The notes: generated by a model from the letters alone, not told the origin. A stretch of DNA of 64,000 bases from Nitrososphaerota archaeon (GCA_011605725.1 JAAOZP010000017.1:1-64000), one strand, 5' to 3'. Positions 36,014-41,875 are shown, numbered from the stretch's first letter. Numbers and translations: made by a program.

Positions 36014-37099
36014 ATGAGGATTGGGAGAGGCATAAGGGTTAAAAAGCTACTTGGAGAGGGTGTTTTGAGAATACTCAGGACAAGAAACCTTGTTGACAAG
36101 ACTCTCCGGATTAAAAGAAACGGGGATTTTCTAGTCATACCTCTCACCATGGAGGTTCAGAGGGAGGAGTTGAGAAAGCTGGGTGTTGAAGGGGATTTGG
36201 TGGTTGAAGGGTTTGAGGAAGCCACTAGTACGCCGAGCCTGTTTGAAAACCTTAGAAATGTTTTATCTGATGACGATTTAAAGATCGTGCCGCGATCGTA
36301 TGATGTGATTGGCGACGTCTGTATTCTTCAGCTTCCTAAGGAACTGTATGACCGTCGCAAGATAATTGGAGAAGTGTTTCTAAAAACCATGAAGAACATA
36401 AGAATGGTGCTTAACAAGACTGAACCTCTTTCTGGCGAGTATAGGGTTGGTGGATACGAGGTTTTAGCCGGCGAAGGAAGCATGGAAACAGTCTACCGGG
36501 AGCATGGTTGCATTTTTAAACTCGATATTTCAAAAGTCTTCTTCACACCGCGGCTCTCAGCCGAAAGAATAAGAGTGGCCTCACTAGTTAAACCTGGAGA
36601 AGTTGTCTGCGACCTTTTCGCTGGAATAGGGCCTTTCAGCATAATTATTGCGAAGAAAAACCCTAGCGTAAAGGTTCATGCTTGCGACATAAACCCATAC
36701 GCCTATAAATACCTTGTTGAAAACATAAGGTTGAACAGGGTTGAAGACAGGGTTAAGGCGTATCTTGGAGATGCTAGAGAACTGTCTGAGAAGAGTTTGA
36801 AAAACGTTGGTGACAGAATTATTATGAACCTACCGATGAGCTCTGAAATGTATCTTGATGCAGCTAAGAATGCGCTTAAAAAACGCGGGGGAATAGTGCA
36901 TCTTCACGTCTTCCTAGAGAAAGATACTGATCCTGATGAAAAATATGCAAGGATTTCAGAATCGTTCAGAAGGCTTGGCTGCGAAACCAAGCTCTTATCC
37001 TCAAGAAGAATAAGGGAGGTTGCTCCCTTTAAATACCATTGGGGTTTCGACATAGAGGTTAAACCGGAAAACGCTGAGTTACAGGCTTCCAGTTCCTAG
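36014..37099 (+). CDS. trm5: Trm5/Taw2-family tRNA methyltransferase
   Basis: SYDVIGD, FFTPRL..ER, DLFAGIGPF, DINP, MNLP. Confidence 0.85.
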   Translation: MRIGRGIRVKKLLGEGVLRILRTRNLVDKTLRIKRNGDFLVIPLTMEVQREELRKLGVEGDLVVEGFEEATSTPSLFENLRNVLSDDDLKIVPRSYDVIGDVCILQLPKELYDRRKIIGEVFLKTMKNIRMVLNKTEPLSGEYRVGGYEVLAGEGSMETVYREHGCIFKLDISKVFFTPRLSAERIRVASLVKPGEVVCDLFAGIGPFSIIIAKKNPSVKVHACDINPYAYKYLVENIRLNRVEDRVKAYLGDARELSEKSLKNVGDRIIMNLPMSSEMYLDAAKNALKKRGGIVHLHVFLEKDTDPDEKYARISESFRRLGCETKLLSSRRIREVAPFKYHWGFDIEVKPENAELQASSS

Positions 37100-38172
37100 T
37101 TGGAAGCGGGTTCACCTGTCTGTATCAATAAAGATTTATTTAGGTCTATTTTGACAACAACTCTTCTTCCAACCATTCCAGATACCGCTTCATACTCGGA
37201 GGAATCATTCCCAGCGCATTCAATCACACCCTGGCTTGTTTTAACACGCGTAACTATTTTCCTACCTGCAAAAAGTGTGCTTAAAAGCTCTCCCTCCAAC
37301 AGGCCTTCACCCTCCAGGCTTATTGAAGCATCTTCAGGTCTGAATAGGAGAACCATTTTCCCGTCCACCTTAGACCCATGCCACCTCATCTTAAACTCGC
37401 CGCTTGGAAAGACAAGTCTGATGGTTTCCATGTCTAGGCGTTCAACCCTGGTTTCAAGCCTATTAACGAACCCTAGGAACCTCGCGGTTTTCTCCGTAGG
37501 GGGCTTCACGTACATCGTGTAAGCATCAGCATAAGAATCTATGACTCCGTCGAACATCGTGGCTATAAAGTCGCCCATGGCGAATGCTTCAAGCTGGTCG
37601 TGTGTAACATATATTGTTGTAATGCCCAGCTTCCTCTGAATCGTCCTTATTACGCTGGATATTTCTGCCCTTAGCCCAGCATCTAGAGCAGTAAGAGGTT
37701 CATCCAAGAGCAGTAGCCTAACTTCGAACGCTATCGCCCTCCCTATTGCCACCCTTTGCTGTTGCCCCCTGCTCAGCTCGTGGGGCCGCCTCTCTTCAAG
37801 CCCGGAGAGCTCAACTAGTTCCACAACCTCCTTAACCCGTCTACCGATTTCCTCTGGACTCCTTCCCCTGGCCTCTAATGGGAATGCAATGTTCTCCCTA
37901 ACATTGAGGTTTGGGAATAATGCTGGGCTTTGGAAAACCATCCCGACGTTTCTCTCTCTAGGGGGGAGACCAGTCACGTCTTTCCCGTCGAATAGAATTC
38001 TACCCGAATCAGGCTTAAGAAGCCCCGCGATTATTCTGAGCGTAGTAGTCTTACCGCATCCGCTGGGACCCAGAAGAGCAAGTGTTTTCCCAGGCGGGAT
38101 GCTGAAACTGACGCCCCTTAACGCTTCAAAGTTTCCAAACCTTTTCCTTAGATCCTGTGCTTCAAGCCTCAT
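37096..38172 (-). CDS. ABC transporter ATP-binding subunit (thiamine, ThiQ-like)
   Basis: GPSGCGKTT, LSRGQQQR, LLLDEP, TOBE-like tail; last gene of the TPP-riboswitch operon. Confidence 0.88.
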   Translation of the reverse strand: MRLEAQDLRKRFGNFEALRGVSFSIPPGKTLALLGPSGCGKTTTLRIIAGLLKPDSGRILFDGKDVTGLPPRERNVGMVFQSPALFPNLNVRENIAFPLEARGRSPEEIGRRVKEVVELVELSGLEERRPHELSRGQQQRVAIGRAIAFEVRLLLLDEPLTALDAGLRAEISSVIRTIQRKLGITTIYVTHDQLEAFAMGDFIATMFDGVIDSYADAYTMYVKPPTEKTARFLGFVNRLETRVERLDMETIRLVFPSGEFKMRWHGSKVDGKMVLLFRPEDASISLEGEGLLEGELLSTLFAGRKIVTRVKTSQGVIECAGNDSSEYEAVSGMVGRRVVVKIDLNKSLLIQTGEPASN

Positions 38173-39789
38173 TCAAATCATCCTCACTCTTTCTTTTGAA
38201 AATTGCGACCCGGCTGTTTCAACAATAATTACTATTGAAGTGAGGAGCGAGGTTAAGGCTAACGCCAGGTTAAGCCTTCTGTAATCTATAAGCAGGTTGA
38301 TGGCTACTGGGATCGTCATCAGGTTGAGCGTGCTGAAGAAGGTTGAGAACGTGAAGTCGCTTAAAGACGAGGAGAACGCCATTAGAAGCGTCGCTACCAC
38401 GGCGGGCAGTATGAGCGGTATTTCAACCCTTATAAGCCTGAAGACGACGGTTGCACCATGAGCATCAGCAGCTTCACGGTATTCTTTAACTATTCTGCTC
38501 CAGGATGCTTCGATAATTCTGGTTGCAAGCGGCACGACTACTGCTGACTGGCCTATCACCATGAGCATCCAGCTTCCATATAGCTTGACAATGCCAAAGC
38601 CGTAGGATAGAAGTATTCCGAGGGCAAGTGATGAGCGCGACATTGTTAATGGAAGAACCATAAGTATGCTTACGATTTTCTCTAAAACACCGCCGGCAAG
38701 CTTTGAAGACCAAACTATCGCAACGGAGAGCAGTGTTGAAAAAACTGAGACGATGAGCGCTATCGATAGGCTTTGAAGAAAAATCTCGCTGAGGCTGAGG
38801 CCGAAGCCGAATTTAAAATCGCAAAGCTCCCTGAAAAGCAGCGGCACGGAGTGTCCTGCCTCTAAAAACGGGCCTACAACCGGTATCACGATGGGCGTAA
38901 GCTCGAAAACGCAGATGAACACCACGTATGCAGCCAGAAGAATCCCGCTGAAGCTTGAAAAGAGCTTTGAAACAGGTTCCTCAACATGACGCTCCACTGA
39001 GGAGGGGGCATAGTATTTTTCCCTTAAAAAAATAATTATGATCGACAAGAACAGTGTTGACGATAGTTGAAGCAGAGCTATGGATGATGAGACTGGTTTA
39101 AACCTGGTGGCGTATATCTCGACCTCAAGTGTTGTAAACTTTCCTCCCACGAGCATTGGTGTGGAATATGTTATGAATGAGAATGCGAACACAAGTAGTG
39201 AGGCAGCAACCATGTGCGGCGTTAAAAAGTTTAAGTATACTGTTTTGAAGACTCGTAGAGTTGAGCCTGAGAAAACCCTGGCGGCATCTACAAGGTCTTG
39301 ATCAACAGAGGAAAAGCCCTGTTCAAGAATGAGGGTTGCTAACGGAACATAGTATATTACGTGCGCCAGTATCACAGCCCACATTGAATATAGGATTTTA
39401 ACAACCGGCTCGCCTGTTGCGAAAATTTGGGAAAGAAGAGAGTTGACGATTCCTTTTTCCCCAAGCAACACTATAAGGCCCTCTGCTACTGTGAAAGCAG
39501 GGACAAAGAACGGTGTAAGTAAAACATACTCTAGAATCCTCTTTCCTTTAAACGAATACTTAGCTAGGAAGAATGCTAATGGGAGAGATAGAAGCAGGGT
39601 AATCAGCGTTGAGAAGACGGCTTGCATAAGAGTCCCGTAGAACAGCCTATGAATATAGTCGTCAAGAAGGATATTTACAAGGTCCTTCTGGTTCACGTTG
39701 CCTATTAGAAAGGATAAGGGCATCATGTAGAAGAAGAGCAGGAATAAAAAGAAAGGCGTGAAGATTAGAAGCTTCCTGATGATGCTCAT
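38173..39789 (-). CDS. thiP: ABC transporter permease, two fused domains (ThiP-like)
   Basis: Two EAA-type loops (DAAR, EAAD), about 12 TM helices; ATGA overlap with the binding-protein gene. Confidence 0.8.
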   Translation of the reverse strand: MSIIRKLLIFTPFFLFLLFFYMMPLSFLIGNVNQKDLVNILLDDYIHRLFYGTLMQAVFSTLITLLLSLPLAFFLAKYSFKGKRILEYVLLTPFFVPAFTVAEGLIVLLGEKGIVNSLLSQIFATGEPVVKILYSMWAVILAHVIYYVPLATLILEQGFSSVDQDLVDAARVFSGSTLRVFKTVYLNFLTPHMVAASLLVFAFSFITYSTPMLVGGKFTTLEVEIYATRFKPVSSSIALLQLSSTLFLSIIIIFLREKYYAPSSVERHVEEPVSKLFSSFSGILLAAYVVFICVFELTPIVIPVVGPFLEAGHSVPLLFRELCDFKFGFGLSLSEIFLQSLSIALIVSVFSTLLSVAIVWSSKLAGGVLEKIVSILMVLPLTMSRSSLALGILLSYGFGIVKLYGSWMLMVIGQSAVVVPLATRIIEASWSRIVKEYREAADAHGATVVFRLIRVEIPLILPAVVATLLMAFSSSLSDFTFSTFFSTLNLMTIPVAINLLIDYRRLNLALALTSLLTSIVIIVETAGSQFSKERVRMI

Positions 39790-40811
39790 CCGGTTTTTAC
39801 CTCTCTCCTCCACTTTTCAAGCCACTGTTCAACGCTTCCCGCAATCTCAGCGTTGAAGGTTACTTTCTCTGAAGGTATTGGAGCGTAGCTAAACAATTCG
39901 ACGGAAGCCTTAGGGTTAACAGGATACATGTATCCTTCAGGTGCAATAAGGTTCTGCGCCTCAGTGCTTAAAACGAACTCTATGAACTTCTTAGCTATTT
40001 CAGGATGCTTAGCGTTCTTAACTAAAGCTATGCCTTCCCTGTAAACAAATCCCTCGACAGCCATGCTTGTAAGGTTAGGAGTCTCCTCGTAACCCACGTC
40101 AGTGTTAAACATGGGTCCAATAGCAACCTCACCTTTTTTCAAAGCCATTATAGAGGAGGTCCAGCCTGAAGGATGAGTCTTAACATTATGCTCAAGCTGT
40201 TTTAGGAAGCTGAATCCTTCTTCAACACCTTTAACGGATAAAACCCATACTAAGAATGATAAGCCTGTTCCGCTTGAAGTCGGATCCTGGTAGAATACTA
40301 GGCCCTTATACTCTGGTCTAAGCAGGTCGTCAAGCCTCTCAGGCGGTGGAAGGCCTAGTCTGGCGAGGATACTGCTGTTGTATGTTATTATAACGTAGCC
40401 TTTATCCATAGGTATAACCGTGCCAGTATGATCCCATATTTCATCCACCGGTATCAGTGAAATATTCTGAGGCCTATACGGCTCTAAAACACCTGCATCT
40501 ATCAAGGTTTTCGCATAAAATTCAGGAATACCCATTATTACATCAGCCACTGGAGAATCTTTTTCAAGGATGAGCTTGTTAGCTATCTCGATTGAACCCA
40601 TGCCGTAGCTTATGAAAGTCACGTTCACGTTAGGATACCTGTTTTTAAACTCTCTCACAAAAGCCGTTGCGAGTCCTGATATTCCCCTAGGCCCGTAAAT
40701 TATCAACGTGTCTTCAAGCCTAGGCTGACTGAGTTGAAGATACAGTATTGAAGACACTATGGCTAGCACTGCAGCTGCCGAAGCCAGCATTATTCTCCAG
40801 CCTATTCTCAT
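39786..40811 (-). CDS. thiB: Thiamine ABC transporter substrate-binding protein (TbpA/ThiB-like)
   Basis: N-terminal TM anchor; LEKDSPVADV, DPTSSGTG, GW, YPVN; downstream of a TPP riboswitch. Confidence 0.82.
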   Translation of the reverse strand: MRIGWRIMLASAAAVLAIVSSILYLQLSQPRLEDTLIIYGPRGISGLATAFVREFKNRYPNVNVTFISYGMGSIEIANKLILEKDSPVADVIMGIPEFYAKTLIDAGVLEPYRPQNISLIPVDEIWDHTGTVIPMDKGYVIITYNSSILARLGLPPPERLDDLLRPEYKGLVFYQDPTSSGTGLSFLVWVLSVKGVEEGFSFLKQLEHNVKTHPSGWTSSIMALKKGEVAIGPMFNTDVGYEETPNLTSMAVEGFVYREGIALVKNAKHPEIAKKFIEFVLSTEAQNLIAPEGYMYPVNPKASVELFSYAPIPSEKVTFNAEIAGSVEQWLEKWRREVKTG

Positions 40812-40854
40812 TTATCCCACCTCCTTTCATACTGGGCGGTAGAAGAAGGAGCGT

Positions 40855-40958
40855 CGGGTAGCTTCCCTACGCCGGTATTATCCGGATCAGGTTAATAGGG
40901 GTCGACCCCCATGCAGGGTCCTCTCAGCCGGGCTTCCCCAGCTCCCCCAGCTACCGCC
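40855..40958 (-). ncRNA. TPP (THI-box) riboswitch
   Basis: Minus strand GGGGAGC...GGCUGAGAG...GACCC...AACCUGAUCCGGAUAAUACCGGCGUAGGGAAG; P1 GGUAGCU/AGCUACC; sits 5' of the thiamine transporter, with a TATA box at ~40985-40992. Confidence 0.95.
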
Positions 40959-41065
40959 GTTAAGCTCCCTTATGAAACAATCGCTTTATAAGTATTACTC
41001 CTGCTGTTCCGTCAGCGTTTGGAAAAATATATAATGTTTACGTGTTACAAACAGGTTCTCAAGGA

Positions 41066-41875
41066 ATGACCAAGATAAACTATCACATTCACAGCACGTA
41101 TAGTGATGGACGGGCCTCAATACTGGAGTATGTTGAGGAAGCAGCTAGAAAGGGGTTTAACGAGATCGCCTTTACTGAACACTTAGCAATACGGCCAGGA
41201 TCAATGAAAAAACTGTATTACTCTATAGATGTCTCCAAGATAGATGATTATGTTAAAGAGGTTAGAGAGGCTGAGAAAAGTTTAAAGGGCTTAAAGGTGA
41301 AGGCGGGTTTAGAGGTCGACTACTTTCCAGGCTCAGAATCATTGCTTAAAGACATCTTAGGAAGCAACGATTTGGATTTCACCATGGTGAGCATCCATTG
41401 GATAGGCGAGTTTTGTCTAGACTGTGTAAAGTATAAGAAGGCTTTTCAAATCGCGGTTAGAGAAGAGGGTTTCGACAAATTCTACTCGAAGTATCTGAAG
41501 CTTCTTGGAGAAGCAGTGGAATCAGGATTGTTCAACGTTATTGCGCACTTCGATATAGCTAGAAACTGGGGTTTCAAAACCTCTAATGATTTTAAGATGG
41601 ATGAGCTCATGATCCTGGAAAAAGCAAGTAGCCTGGGAATGGTTGTTGAGGTTTCCAGCAAGGGGTTGAGAAACCCTGTTAACGAGCCGTATCCGACTCG
41701 GAAGATTCTAGAATACTGTAGCTCCATCAAAATACCGATTACACTTGGTACTGATGCCCATAGGCTGAGCGAGATCGACTCAAACTATGATTCTATAGTT
41801 GAGTATGCTAAGACTGCTGGTTACTCAGAGTTAGCCACGTTCGACAGGAGGAAGCTGACTCTCGCTCCTTTTTAA
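41066..41875 (+). CDS. Histidinol-phosphatase HisJ-type PHP protein
   Basis: YHIHSTYSDG, FTEH, GLEVD, SIH, AHFD, GTDAH. Confidence 0.85.
   Translation: MTKINYHIHSTYSDGRASILEYVEEAARKGFNEIAFTEHLAIRPGSMKKLYYSIDVSKIDDYVKEVREAEKSLKGLKVKAGLEVDYFPGSESLLKDILGSNDLDFTMVSIHWIGEFCLDCVKYKKAFQIAVREEGFDKFYSKYLKLLGEAVESGLFNVIAHFDIARNWGFKTSNDFKMDELMILEKASSLGMVVEVSSKGLRNPVNEPYPTRKILEYCSSIKIPITLGTDAHRLSEIDSNYDSIVEYAKTAGYSELATFDRRKLTLAPF

Follow-up and report, generated by a model that had tools for sequence, protein, structure and literature searches.

How might an archaeon that appears unable to make thiamine control the importer through which it would obtain the vitamin? The question is raised by a 64,000-nucleotide stretch of DNA filed under a Nitrososphaerota archaeon (GCA_011605725.1, JAAOZP010000017.1:1-64000), referred to here in its full length as the window. 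In the window, a 256-bp spacer between a plus-strand phosphatase gene (ATG at 41066) and a three-gene minus-strand ATP-binding cassette (ABC) importer contains a riboswitch of the thiamine pyrophosphate (TPP) family. The host belongs to Candidatus Brockarchaeota, a lineage of Thermoproteota from hot springs represented by metagenome-assembled genomes. We consider it likely that the element is a TPP riboswitch acting, most probably as a translational OFF switch, on a thiBPQ-like importer of a thermophilic archaeon that cannot make thiamine.

The TPP aptamer and its host

A covariance-model search of the host genome (G000; 2.23 Mb in 20 contigs, 93% complete) returned a single match to the Rfam TPP family, RF00059. 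The match lies at 40847-40958 on the minus strand, scored 72 bits (gathering score, 54.3; E value, 3e-12), and covered the model over its full length (positions 1-105). Alignment to the model indicated that the CUGAGA and ACCUGAUC..GGAUAAUACCGGCG.AGGGA ligand-contact cores agree with the RF00059 consensus and that helices P1 to P5 are all present, with a single nonstandard pair flagged at the base of P3. The P1 helix pairs GGUAGCU (40956-40950) with AGCUACC (40863-40857, minus strand), the latter strand being placed both by the alignment and by comparison of orthologues. The comparison set consisted of 12 distinct full orthologous leaders, drawn from genomes and metagenome contigs, whose downstream substrate-binding proteins (SBPs) are 81-92% identical to that of the window. 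Compensatory changes occurred among the orthologues in P1, where U-A became A-U, and in P4/P5, where CCGG/CCGG became CCAG/CUGG. The aptamer is 64% GC and sits in the same-strand 5′ leader, ending 35 nt before the start codon of the thiamine-type SBP gene. A canonical THI-box ahead of thiB had been claimed in the original prediction, and the Rfam search bears that claim out; moreover, every element the prediction named was present on the minus strand where it had been placed. We conclude that the element is a genuine TPP riboswitch by family, with TPP as its predicted ligand.

The thiamine gene complement of the host was surveyed in the same 93% complete genome. The ThiN domain (PF10120) had no match in G000, and thus neither the repressor ThiR, the presence of which the original prediction had left to be checked, nor a ThiN synthase was found there. 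Similarly, no ThiC, ThiE, ThiD, thiamine pyrophosphokinase (TPK), or true Thi4 was found in G000. A ThiL gene was present (C20:3707-4645; 188.7 bits versus 184), and two more genes of the PurM superfamily (C7:283087-283932 and C4:224951-225721) gave subthreshold ThiL scores. No gene of G000 was assigned to the conversion of thiamine to thiamine monophosphate (TMP). The importer downstream of the riboswitch was the sole route of thiamine acquisition found in G000. We conclude that the host is most likely a thiamine auxotroph, given the completeness of the genome from which its gene content was read.

Switching strands and their conservation

The element contains two strands that can pair with each other at the expense of the aptamer. 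The 5′ arm, GGCGGUAG-CU-GGGGGAGC (40941-40958, minus strand), supplies the 5′ strands of P1 and P2 in the aptamer, and the platform strand, GCUCCUUC-UU-CUACCGCC (40835-40852, minus strand), has a sequence that occurs once in the host genome. When RNAs starting at 40958 or 40965 were folded with ViennaRNA, the minimum free energy (MFE) structure at both 37 and 60°C was an ON state in which arm and platform paired as two 8-bp helices, the aptamer was disrupted, and the Shine-Dalgarno sequence (SD) was free. When P1 was enforced, the canonical aptamer formed together with a hairpin in which UUCUACC.CC of the platform, the anti-SD, paired with GG.GGUGGGA (OFF state), and 8 of 8 orthologues from the genus likewise gave aptamer plus SD hairpin. 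Three mutually exclusive pairings are therefore all present: P1, the anti-SD:SD duplex, and the duplex of the 5′ arm and the anti-SD, such that the arm is an aptamer strand in one state and an antisequestor in the other.

The pairing of arm with platform was far stronger than expected from base composition. The 16-bp duplex had a predicted energy of −30.0 kcal/mol, compared with an average of −16.9 ± 2.8 for dinucleotide shuffles of the platform, and its energy was equalled by 1 of 3000 such shuffles and by 0 of 4000 random genomic 32-mers. Moreover, all 16 ON-state pairs were invariant in the 12 leaders, and the sole variable columns of both strands were those of the predicted 2x2 internal loop. 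Specifically, 1 of 18 platform columns varied, and it fell in the loop; the 5′ arm was invariant save for a loop position that also closes P1 and that covaries with its P1 partner (the U-A to A-U change above). Mean pairwise identity among the 12 orthologues was 98% for the platform, 96% for the 5′ arm, and 96% for the TATA box, versus 85% for the rest of the aptamer, 74% for the spacer before the SD, and 49% for the 26 nt of leader between TATA box and arm. The ON state had been proposed in the original prediction as two 8-bp helices joining 40941-40958 to 40835-40852, and it was recovered here as the MFE fold, in the energy controls, and in the invariance of its pairs. We conclude that the strongly supported feature of the locus is an alternative helix that competes with the aptamer.

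Promoter and translation signals flank the switching strands. A TATA box for the riboswitch-thiBPQ transcript, read in the sequence as TTATAAA (40991-40985, minus strand; TTTATAAA in orthologues), was conserved, with a fixed spacing to the arm (22 to 26 nt upstream of GGCGG in all orthologues), in keeping with the earlier proposal of a TATA box at about 40985-40992. Archaeal transcription usually starts about 26 nt from the center of the TATA box. The TATA position and this spacing predict a 5′ end at about 40958-40962, and we therefore infer that the RNA begins with the switching strand itself. On the other side of the platform, GGAGGUG (40824-40818, minus strand) lies 6 nt before the start codon, as also claimed previously, and is a 7-nt SD, since the host 16S rRNA ends in ...GGAUCACCUCCU, to which it is complementary. 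Genome-wide, SD 5-mers peaked roughly 5-fold between positions −16 and −10 ahead of long open reading frames (ORFs), indicating that SD-led initiation is in use in the host. The SBP start codon itself is the AUG at 40809-40811 (minus strand), from which a conserved N terminus, MRIGWR, is read.

Three other candidate features of the leader were considered and rejected. First, an outer helix of GGGAGC (40969-40964) with GCUCCU appeared in the MFE structure of an RNA beginning at 40975, and its upstream strand is both nonconserved and upstream of the predicted start. Second, a leader ORF opening with an AUG at 40830-40828 is not in the thiB frame, and several orthologues lack that AUG. Third, intrinsic or oligo-U termination was ruled out, as neither a hairpin nor a U tract is present: there were no terminator-like sites between the aptamer and the start codon, and the longest run of U was 2.

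Beyond the 12 orthologues, leaders at sister-family and more distant loci (L004, L010, L011, L071, and L074; SBPs 53-68% identical) differed in sequence. MFE readings, which are not statistics, nonetheless showed that in those leaders, too, a sequence complementary to the 5′ half of the aptamer lies downstream of it (GCAAGGGGUGCCG or GGGGAGCUGGG), and at L004 this sequence overlapped an anti-SD, CCUUUACCU, facing AGGUGAGG. On two metagenome contigs with SBPs 55% identical to that of the window (L071, 2304-2504, and L072, 2286-2504), about 148 nt separate the aptamer from thiB downstream, and gene callers place in the intervening spacer an ORF of 66-72 amino acids that ends on the thiB start codon, a candidate leader ORF. 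Separately, one genome, G009, contained two different riboswitch-thiB loci (L003 on C12 and L017 on C86) with SBPs 90% and 92% identical to that of the window. With contamination of 5%, the double locus of G009 is probably a strain mixture rather than paralogy.

The regulated step and a possible role of temperature

One way in which the competing helices could regulate the importer is by controlling access to the SD. Transcription would start at GGCGG (40958) or a few nucleotides upstream. Without TPP, the first 18 nt of the RNA would pair with the platform just 3′ of the aptamer, P1 and P2 would be broken, the SD and AUG would be single stranded, and the importer would be made. With TPP bound, the aptamer would keep the 5′ arm in P1 and P2, and the freed pyrimidine strand would fold onto the SD (UUCUACC.CC with GG.GGUGGGA) and block binding of the 30S subunit. 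The action of archaeal riboswitches is almost unknown, and the element offers a concrete model built of three short strands, a strong SD, and a defined promoter. The model is testable by mutation, for example by changing GGCGGUAG of the arm to GGCCCUAG and CUACCGCC of the platform to CUAGGGCC, and the element, which comes from a thermophile, could be transferred to Thermococcus or Sulfolobus reporters or serve as a heat-stable genetic tool.

Several results weigh against SD occlusion by a ligand-driven switch. The anti-SD:SD duplex had a predicted energy of −11.8 kcal/mol, which was equalled by 1477 of 3000 shuffles and by 584 of 4000 genomic 32-mers (15%). The energy is unremarkable because the platform is pyrimidine rich and the SD purine rich, such that any arrangement of the platform pairs. 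Thus, the OFF state of the original prediction stood insofar as the P1-enforced folds gave the anti-SD:SD hairpin, and was less well supported insofar as the pairing was indistinguishable from that of any pyrimidine-rich spacer. In P1-enforced folds the pairing was predicted in every case, the SD being 14-34% unpaired at 37°C and the duplex energy no better than that of controls. As the pairing is no stronger than in controls, the case for SD occlusion as the natural output would draw on plausibility and on the lack of an alternative signal. Moreover, the ON helix had no compensatory changes among the 12 orthologues, since its pairs never vary, and its comparative support is conservation. In the host genome, a start 10-15 nt farther upstream altered the predicted MFE structure. 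Finally, free energies of the constrained ON and OFF ensembles, calculated for the 12 orthologues, made the OFF state the more stable without ligand between 37 and 60°C; four orthologues still showed this preference at 75°C (by up to 2.8 kcal/mol), where the nearest-neighbor parameters are extrapolations and unreliable.

The aptamer and the alternative helix could both be real and the regulated step could be the fate of the transcript rather than SD occlusion, an alternative that we regard as unlikely. TPP might expose or protect the 5′ end with respect to a 5′-3′ exonuclease, or might direct factor-dependent termination or cleavage of the aCPSF1/FttA type in the pyrimidine-rich platform. Consistent with the first route, the 5′ end was paired in the ON fold and its first 2-3 nt were free in the OFF fold, and the pairing of the SD was statistically unremarkable. 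Outputs of archaeal riboswitches are, moreover, essentially unstudied, the fluoride riboswitch of Thermococcus kodakarensis being the sole one tested in vivo (PMC8241225, 2021). However, the leader contains neither an oligo-U tract nor a terminator-like hairpin, the platform is followed by a strong, correctly spaced SD that was paired in every P1-enforced fold, and the host genome uses SD-led initiation.

Translational control through the SD was also considered with respect to temperature. The growth optimum of the host was estimated from proteome composition at about 78°C, and its 16S rRNA is 62% GC compared with 46% for the genome. In the 12 orthologues, the ON-minus-OFF difference was as high as +8.9 kcal/mol at 37°C, favoring OFF, and ranged from −4.0 to +2.8 kcal/mol at 75°C. 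The element had been called thermostable, and by computation its two states are indeed nearly isoenergetic at 75°C, close to the estimated optimum; a modest ligand-binding energy could tip a switch so closely balanced. The fall in the difference with rising temperature would also fit an element that integrates temperature and TPP, in which the apo ON fold is reached only near growth temperature and uptake is shut in the cold as well. Such integration seems improbable, as the same trend may merely reflect an RNA tuned to its normal temperature, the extrapolated energy parameters are uncertain, and the physiological rationale is hypothetical.

It is highly improbable that the aptamer is conserved but nonregulating or vestigial, with the importer constitutive or otherwise controlled: the OFF fold of several orthologues is predicted to be more stable even without ligand and a decayed copy exists in G008, but conservation of arm and platform exceeds the aptamer average while the flanks drift, the decayed copy is confined to a genome that has lost the importer, and a search of the host genome yielded neither ThiR nor another thiamine regulator. 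In G008, a genome of the same genus, the PHP phosphatase gene and Trm5b flank the exact point from which thiBPQ is missing, and the SBP was found nowhere in that genome. The relic (about 1500-1603 of L016, which is G008:C2:88498-91601) has a 10-nt deletion in P2 and scored 44.6 bits, below the cutoff. Decay of the relic where the importer has been deleted indicates that maintenance of the riboswitch is tied to the importer.

Related riboswitches, ThiR, and the importer operon

The original prediction took riboswitches to be rare in archaea and TPP elements to be best known from Thermoplasmatales, a premise that current genome collections have made outdated. Of 150 other Thermoproteota genomes sampled, 30 carried RF00059, as did 17 of 77 genera, and TPP riboswitches are thus common in Thermoproteota, at about a fifth of sampled genomes. 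In an earlier compilation, riboswitches of any class numbered 6 in Crenarchaeota and 1 each in Korarchaeota and Thaumarchaeota (McCown et al. 2017, PMC5473149), and a literature search returned nothing linking TPP riboswitches to Brockarchaeota or other TACK groups. The TPP riboswitches of Thermoplasmatales resemble the element in being archaeal aptamers ahead of thiamine transport or synthesis genes, but the host here belongs to a different phylum. Most of the other Thermoproteota TPP riboswitches examined have a start codon directly at the 3′ end of the aptamer, before small membrane proteins, whereas the element here has a separate 45-nt platform. At loci of that layout (L007, L008, L015, L026, L028, L031, L032, L034-L036, and L041), the start codon falls 70-79 nt after the CUGAGA core, the downstream genes encode membrane proteins of 170-195 amino acids, and there is no separate expression platform.

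Among bacterial systems, the closest in logic is the thiM riboswitch of Escherichia coli, which Winkler and colleagues are said to have described in 2002 as a TPP riboswitch of the translational type. Both have an RF00059 aptamer and no terminator, and the element is predicted to share the three-strand logic of thiM, in which binding of TPP lets an anti-SD strand pair with the SD, whereas without TPP that strand pairs with the aptamer's 5′ portion. Unlike thiM, the element here has an archaeal TATA promoter and a transcript that apparently starts at the switching strand, is 64% GC, is balanced for about 75°C, controls (on the reading favored here) an ABC importer, and is known from its sequence alone. 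A THI-box is reportedly also found upstream of bacterial thiBPQ (tbpA-thiPQ) operons, as attributed to Rodionov and colleagues in 2002, and there too a riboswitch precedes an importer of SBP, fused permease, and ATPase. In contrast to those operons, the proteins here pass the cutoff of the thiamine SBP subfamily alone and fall below the ThiB, ThiP, and ThiQ equivalogs; outside the order, Thermococcus supplies the nearest named relative (36%), and homologues from Chloroflexota and Thermomicrobiales are 28-30% identical. The fluoride riboswitch of T. kodakarensis likewise comes from a hyperthermophilic archaeon but has a different ligand and family; its action is presumed to be on translation (Speed et al. 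2018, cited in PMC8241225). Textbook precedents exist for the aptamer family, for logic of the thiM type, and for the thiBPQ context, and the general understanding of TPP riboswitches is unchanged by the element, the value of which lies in an unusually legible, conserved, and temperature-balanced platform in a little-studied host.

The riboswitch is not the only thiamine regulator in related archaea. ThiR, said to have been described by Rodionov and colleagues in the Journal of Bacteriology in 2017 (199:e00743-16, a citation given in PMC6593275), is reportedly the archaeal thiamine repressor with a helix-turn-helix (HTH) and a ThiN domain; it does the same job but is a protein sensor and is absent from G000. 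In an order-level survey, the riboswitch was found in 12 of 26 genomes, and ThiR-like genes (HTH plus ThiN, 305-325 amino acids) were found in five (G004, G014, G011, G022, and G024), with the architecture confirmed by Pfam for three. Those at G004:C19 (L088, 931-1872), G022:C52 (L092, 1209-2138), and G024:C46 (L091, 646-1563) encode 305-319 amino acids and lie in riboswitch-negative genomes. Within the order, 0 of 5 genomes with a ThiR-like gene carried the riboswitch, and no riboswitch genome had a ThiR-like gene. Members of genus g5 had the orthologous importer behind a plain AT-rich promoter with no riboswitch. Moreover, an uncultured lineage had a thiB orthologue of 47% identity (P0033 contig; L073, 1-525) with a divergent HTH-plus-ThiN gene 87 bp upstream and no riboswitch.

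At the level of the phylum, the separation is looser. In a sample of 151 genomes, a ThiN domain was lacking in 16 of 31 riboswitch genomes versus 4 of 120 riboswitch-free genomes, a comparison among related genomes rather than a formal test. Strict phylum-wide exclusivity of riboswitch and ThiR was rejected, as it is contradicted by family f11, in which each riboswitch genome has two ThiN-domain genes and one, G116, has a ThiR-sized frame of 328 amino acids. Exclusivity thus holds only at the level of the order, in which related operons appear to have an RNA regulator in some cases and a protein regulator in others. The two were not found together in any one genome of the order, which bears on the evolution of vitamin regulation in auxotrophic archaea. 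We tentatively suggest, as a possibility that falls somewhat short of probable, that one and the same importer operon within the order is governed by an RNA sensor in some lineages and by ThiR in others, and that the RNA sensor is bistable, anchored at the 5′ end, and SD sequestering, with folds isoenergetic only near 75°C. If so, the element would be a compact natural translational switch tuned to a hyperthermophile, the mechanism of a TACK-archaeal riboswitch would be fully readable for the first time, and the order would provide a clean case of replacement between RNA and protein regulators.

Genus g1, as delimited by GTDB, fell into two groups. Large genomes of 1.8-2.3 Mb had both riboswitch and thiBPQ, except for G008, which has the relic only. 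Small genomes of 1.2-1.5 Mb were without the riboswitch, and the three in which the SBP was sought were without it as well. Several of the small genomes had genes of ThiD-ThiN size together with ThiR-like genes.

The importer operon consists of three minus-strand genes. The thiB-like SBP (39786-40811; 341 amino acids) matched the thiamine SBP subfamily TIGR01254 at 143 bits versus a cutoff of 93, and its solved relatives are the pyridoxal phosphate (PLP)-binding protein P5PA (PDB 6wce) and E. coli TbpA (2qry). The second gene encodes a fused two-domain, ThiP-like permease (38173-39813; 546 amino acids) with two BPD_transp_1 stretches and a full-length alignment to the ThiP model that is below cutoffs. 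The third encodes an ABC ATPase (37096-38172; 358 amino acids; PF00005) that is PotA/PhnT2-like and has a ThiQ score below cutoff. Cutoffs of the E. coli-type equivalogs were not reached for ThiB (TIGR01276; 80.9 versus 317), ThiP (NF006955; 90.8 versus 801), or ThiQ (TIGR01277; 141.6 versus 245). As only the broader thiamine SBP subfamily model, TIGR01254, was satisfied, we call the operon thiBPQ-like. Homologues of the SBP formed a series at 81-92%, 62-68%, and 47-55% identity, all on uncultured archaeal-type contigs, followed by Thermococcus at 36% and Chloroflexota at 28%. A bacterial origin of thiBPQ had been raised previously, and the identity series, which is not a tree, gave no sign of recent bacterial transfer.

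Divergent from the riboswitch, on the plus strand, lies a phosphatase of the PHP/HisJ family (41066-41875; TIGR01856, 134 bits versus a cutoff of 90), for which a role in thiamine phosphate metabolism is conceivable. Its position was kept in several genomes of the same genus (L016 and L098) and not at L093.

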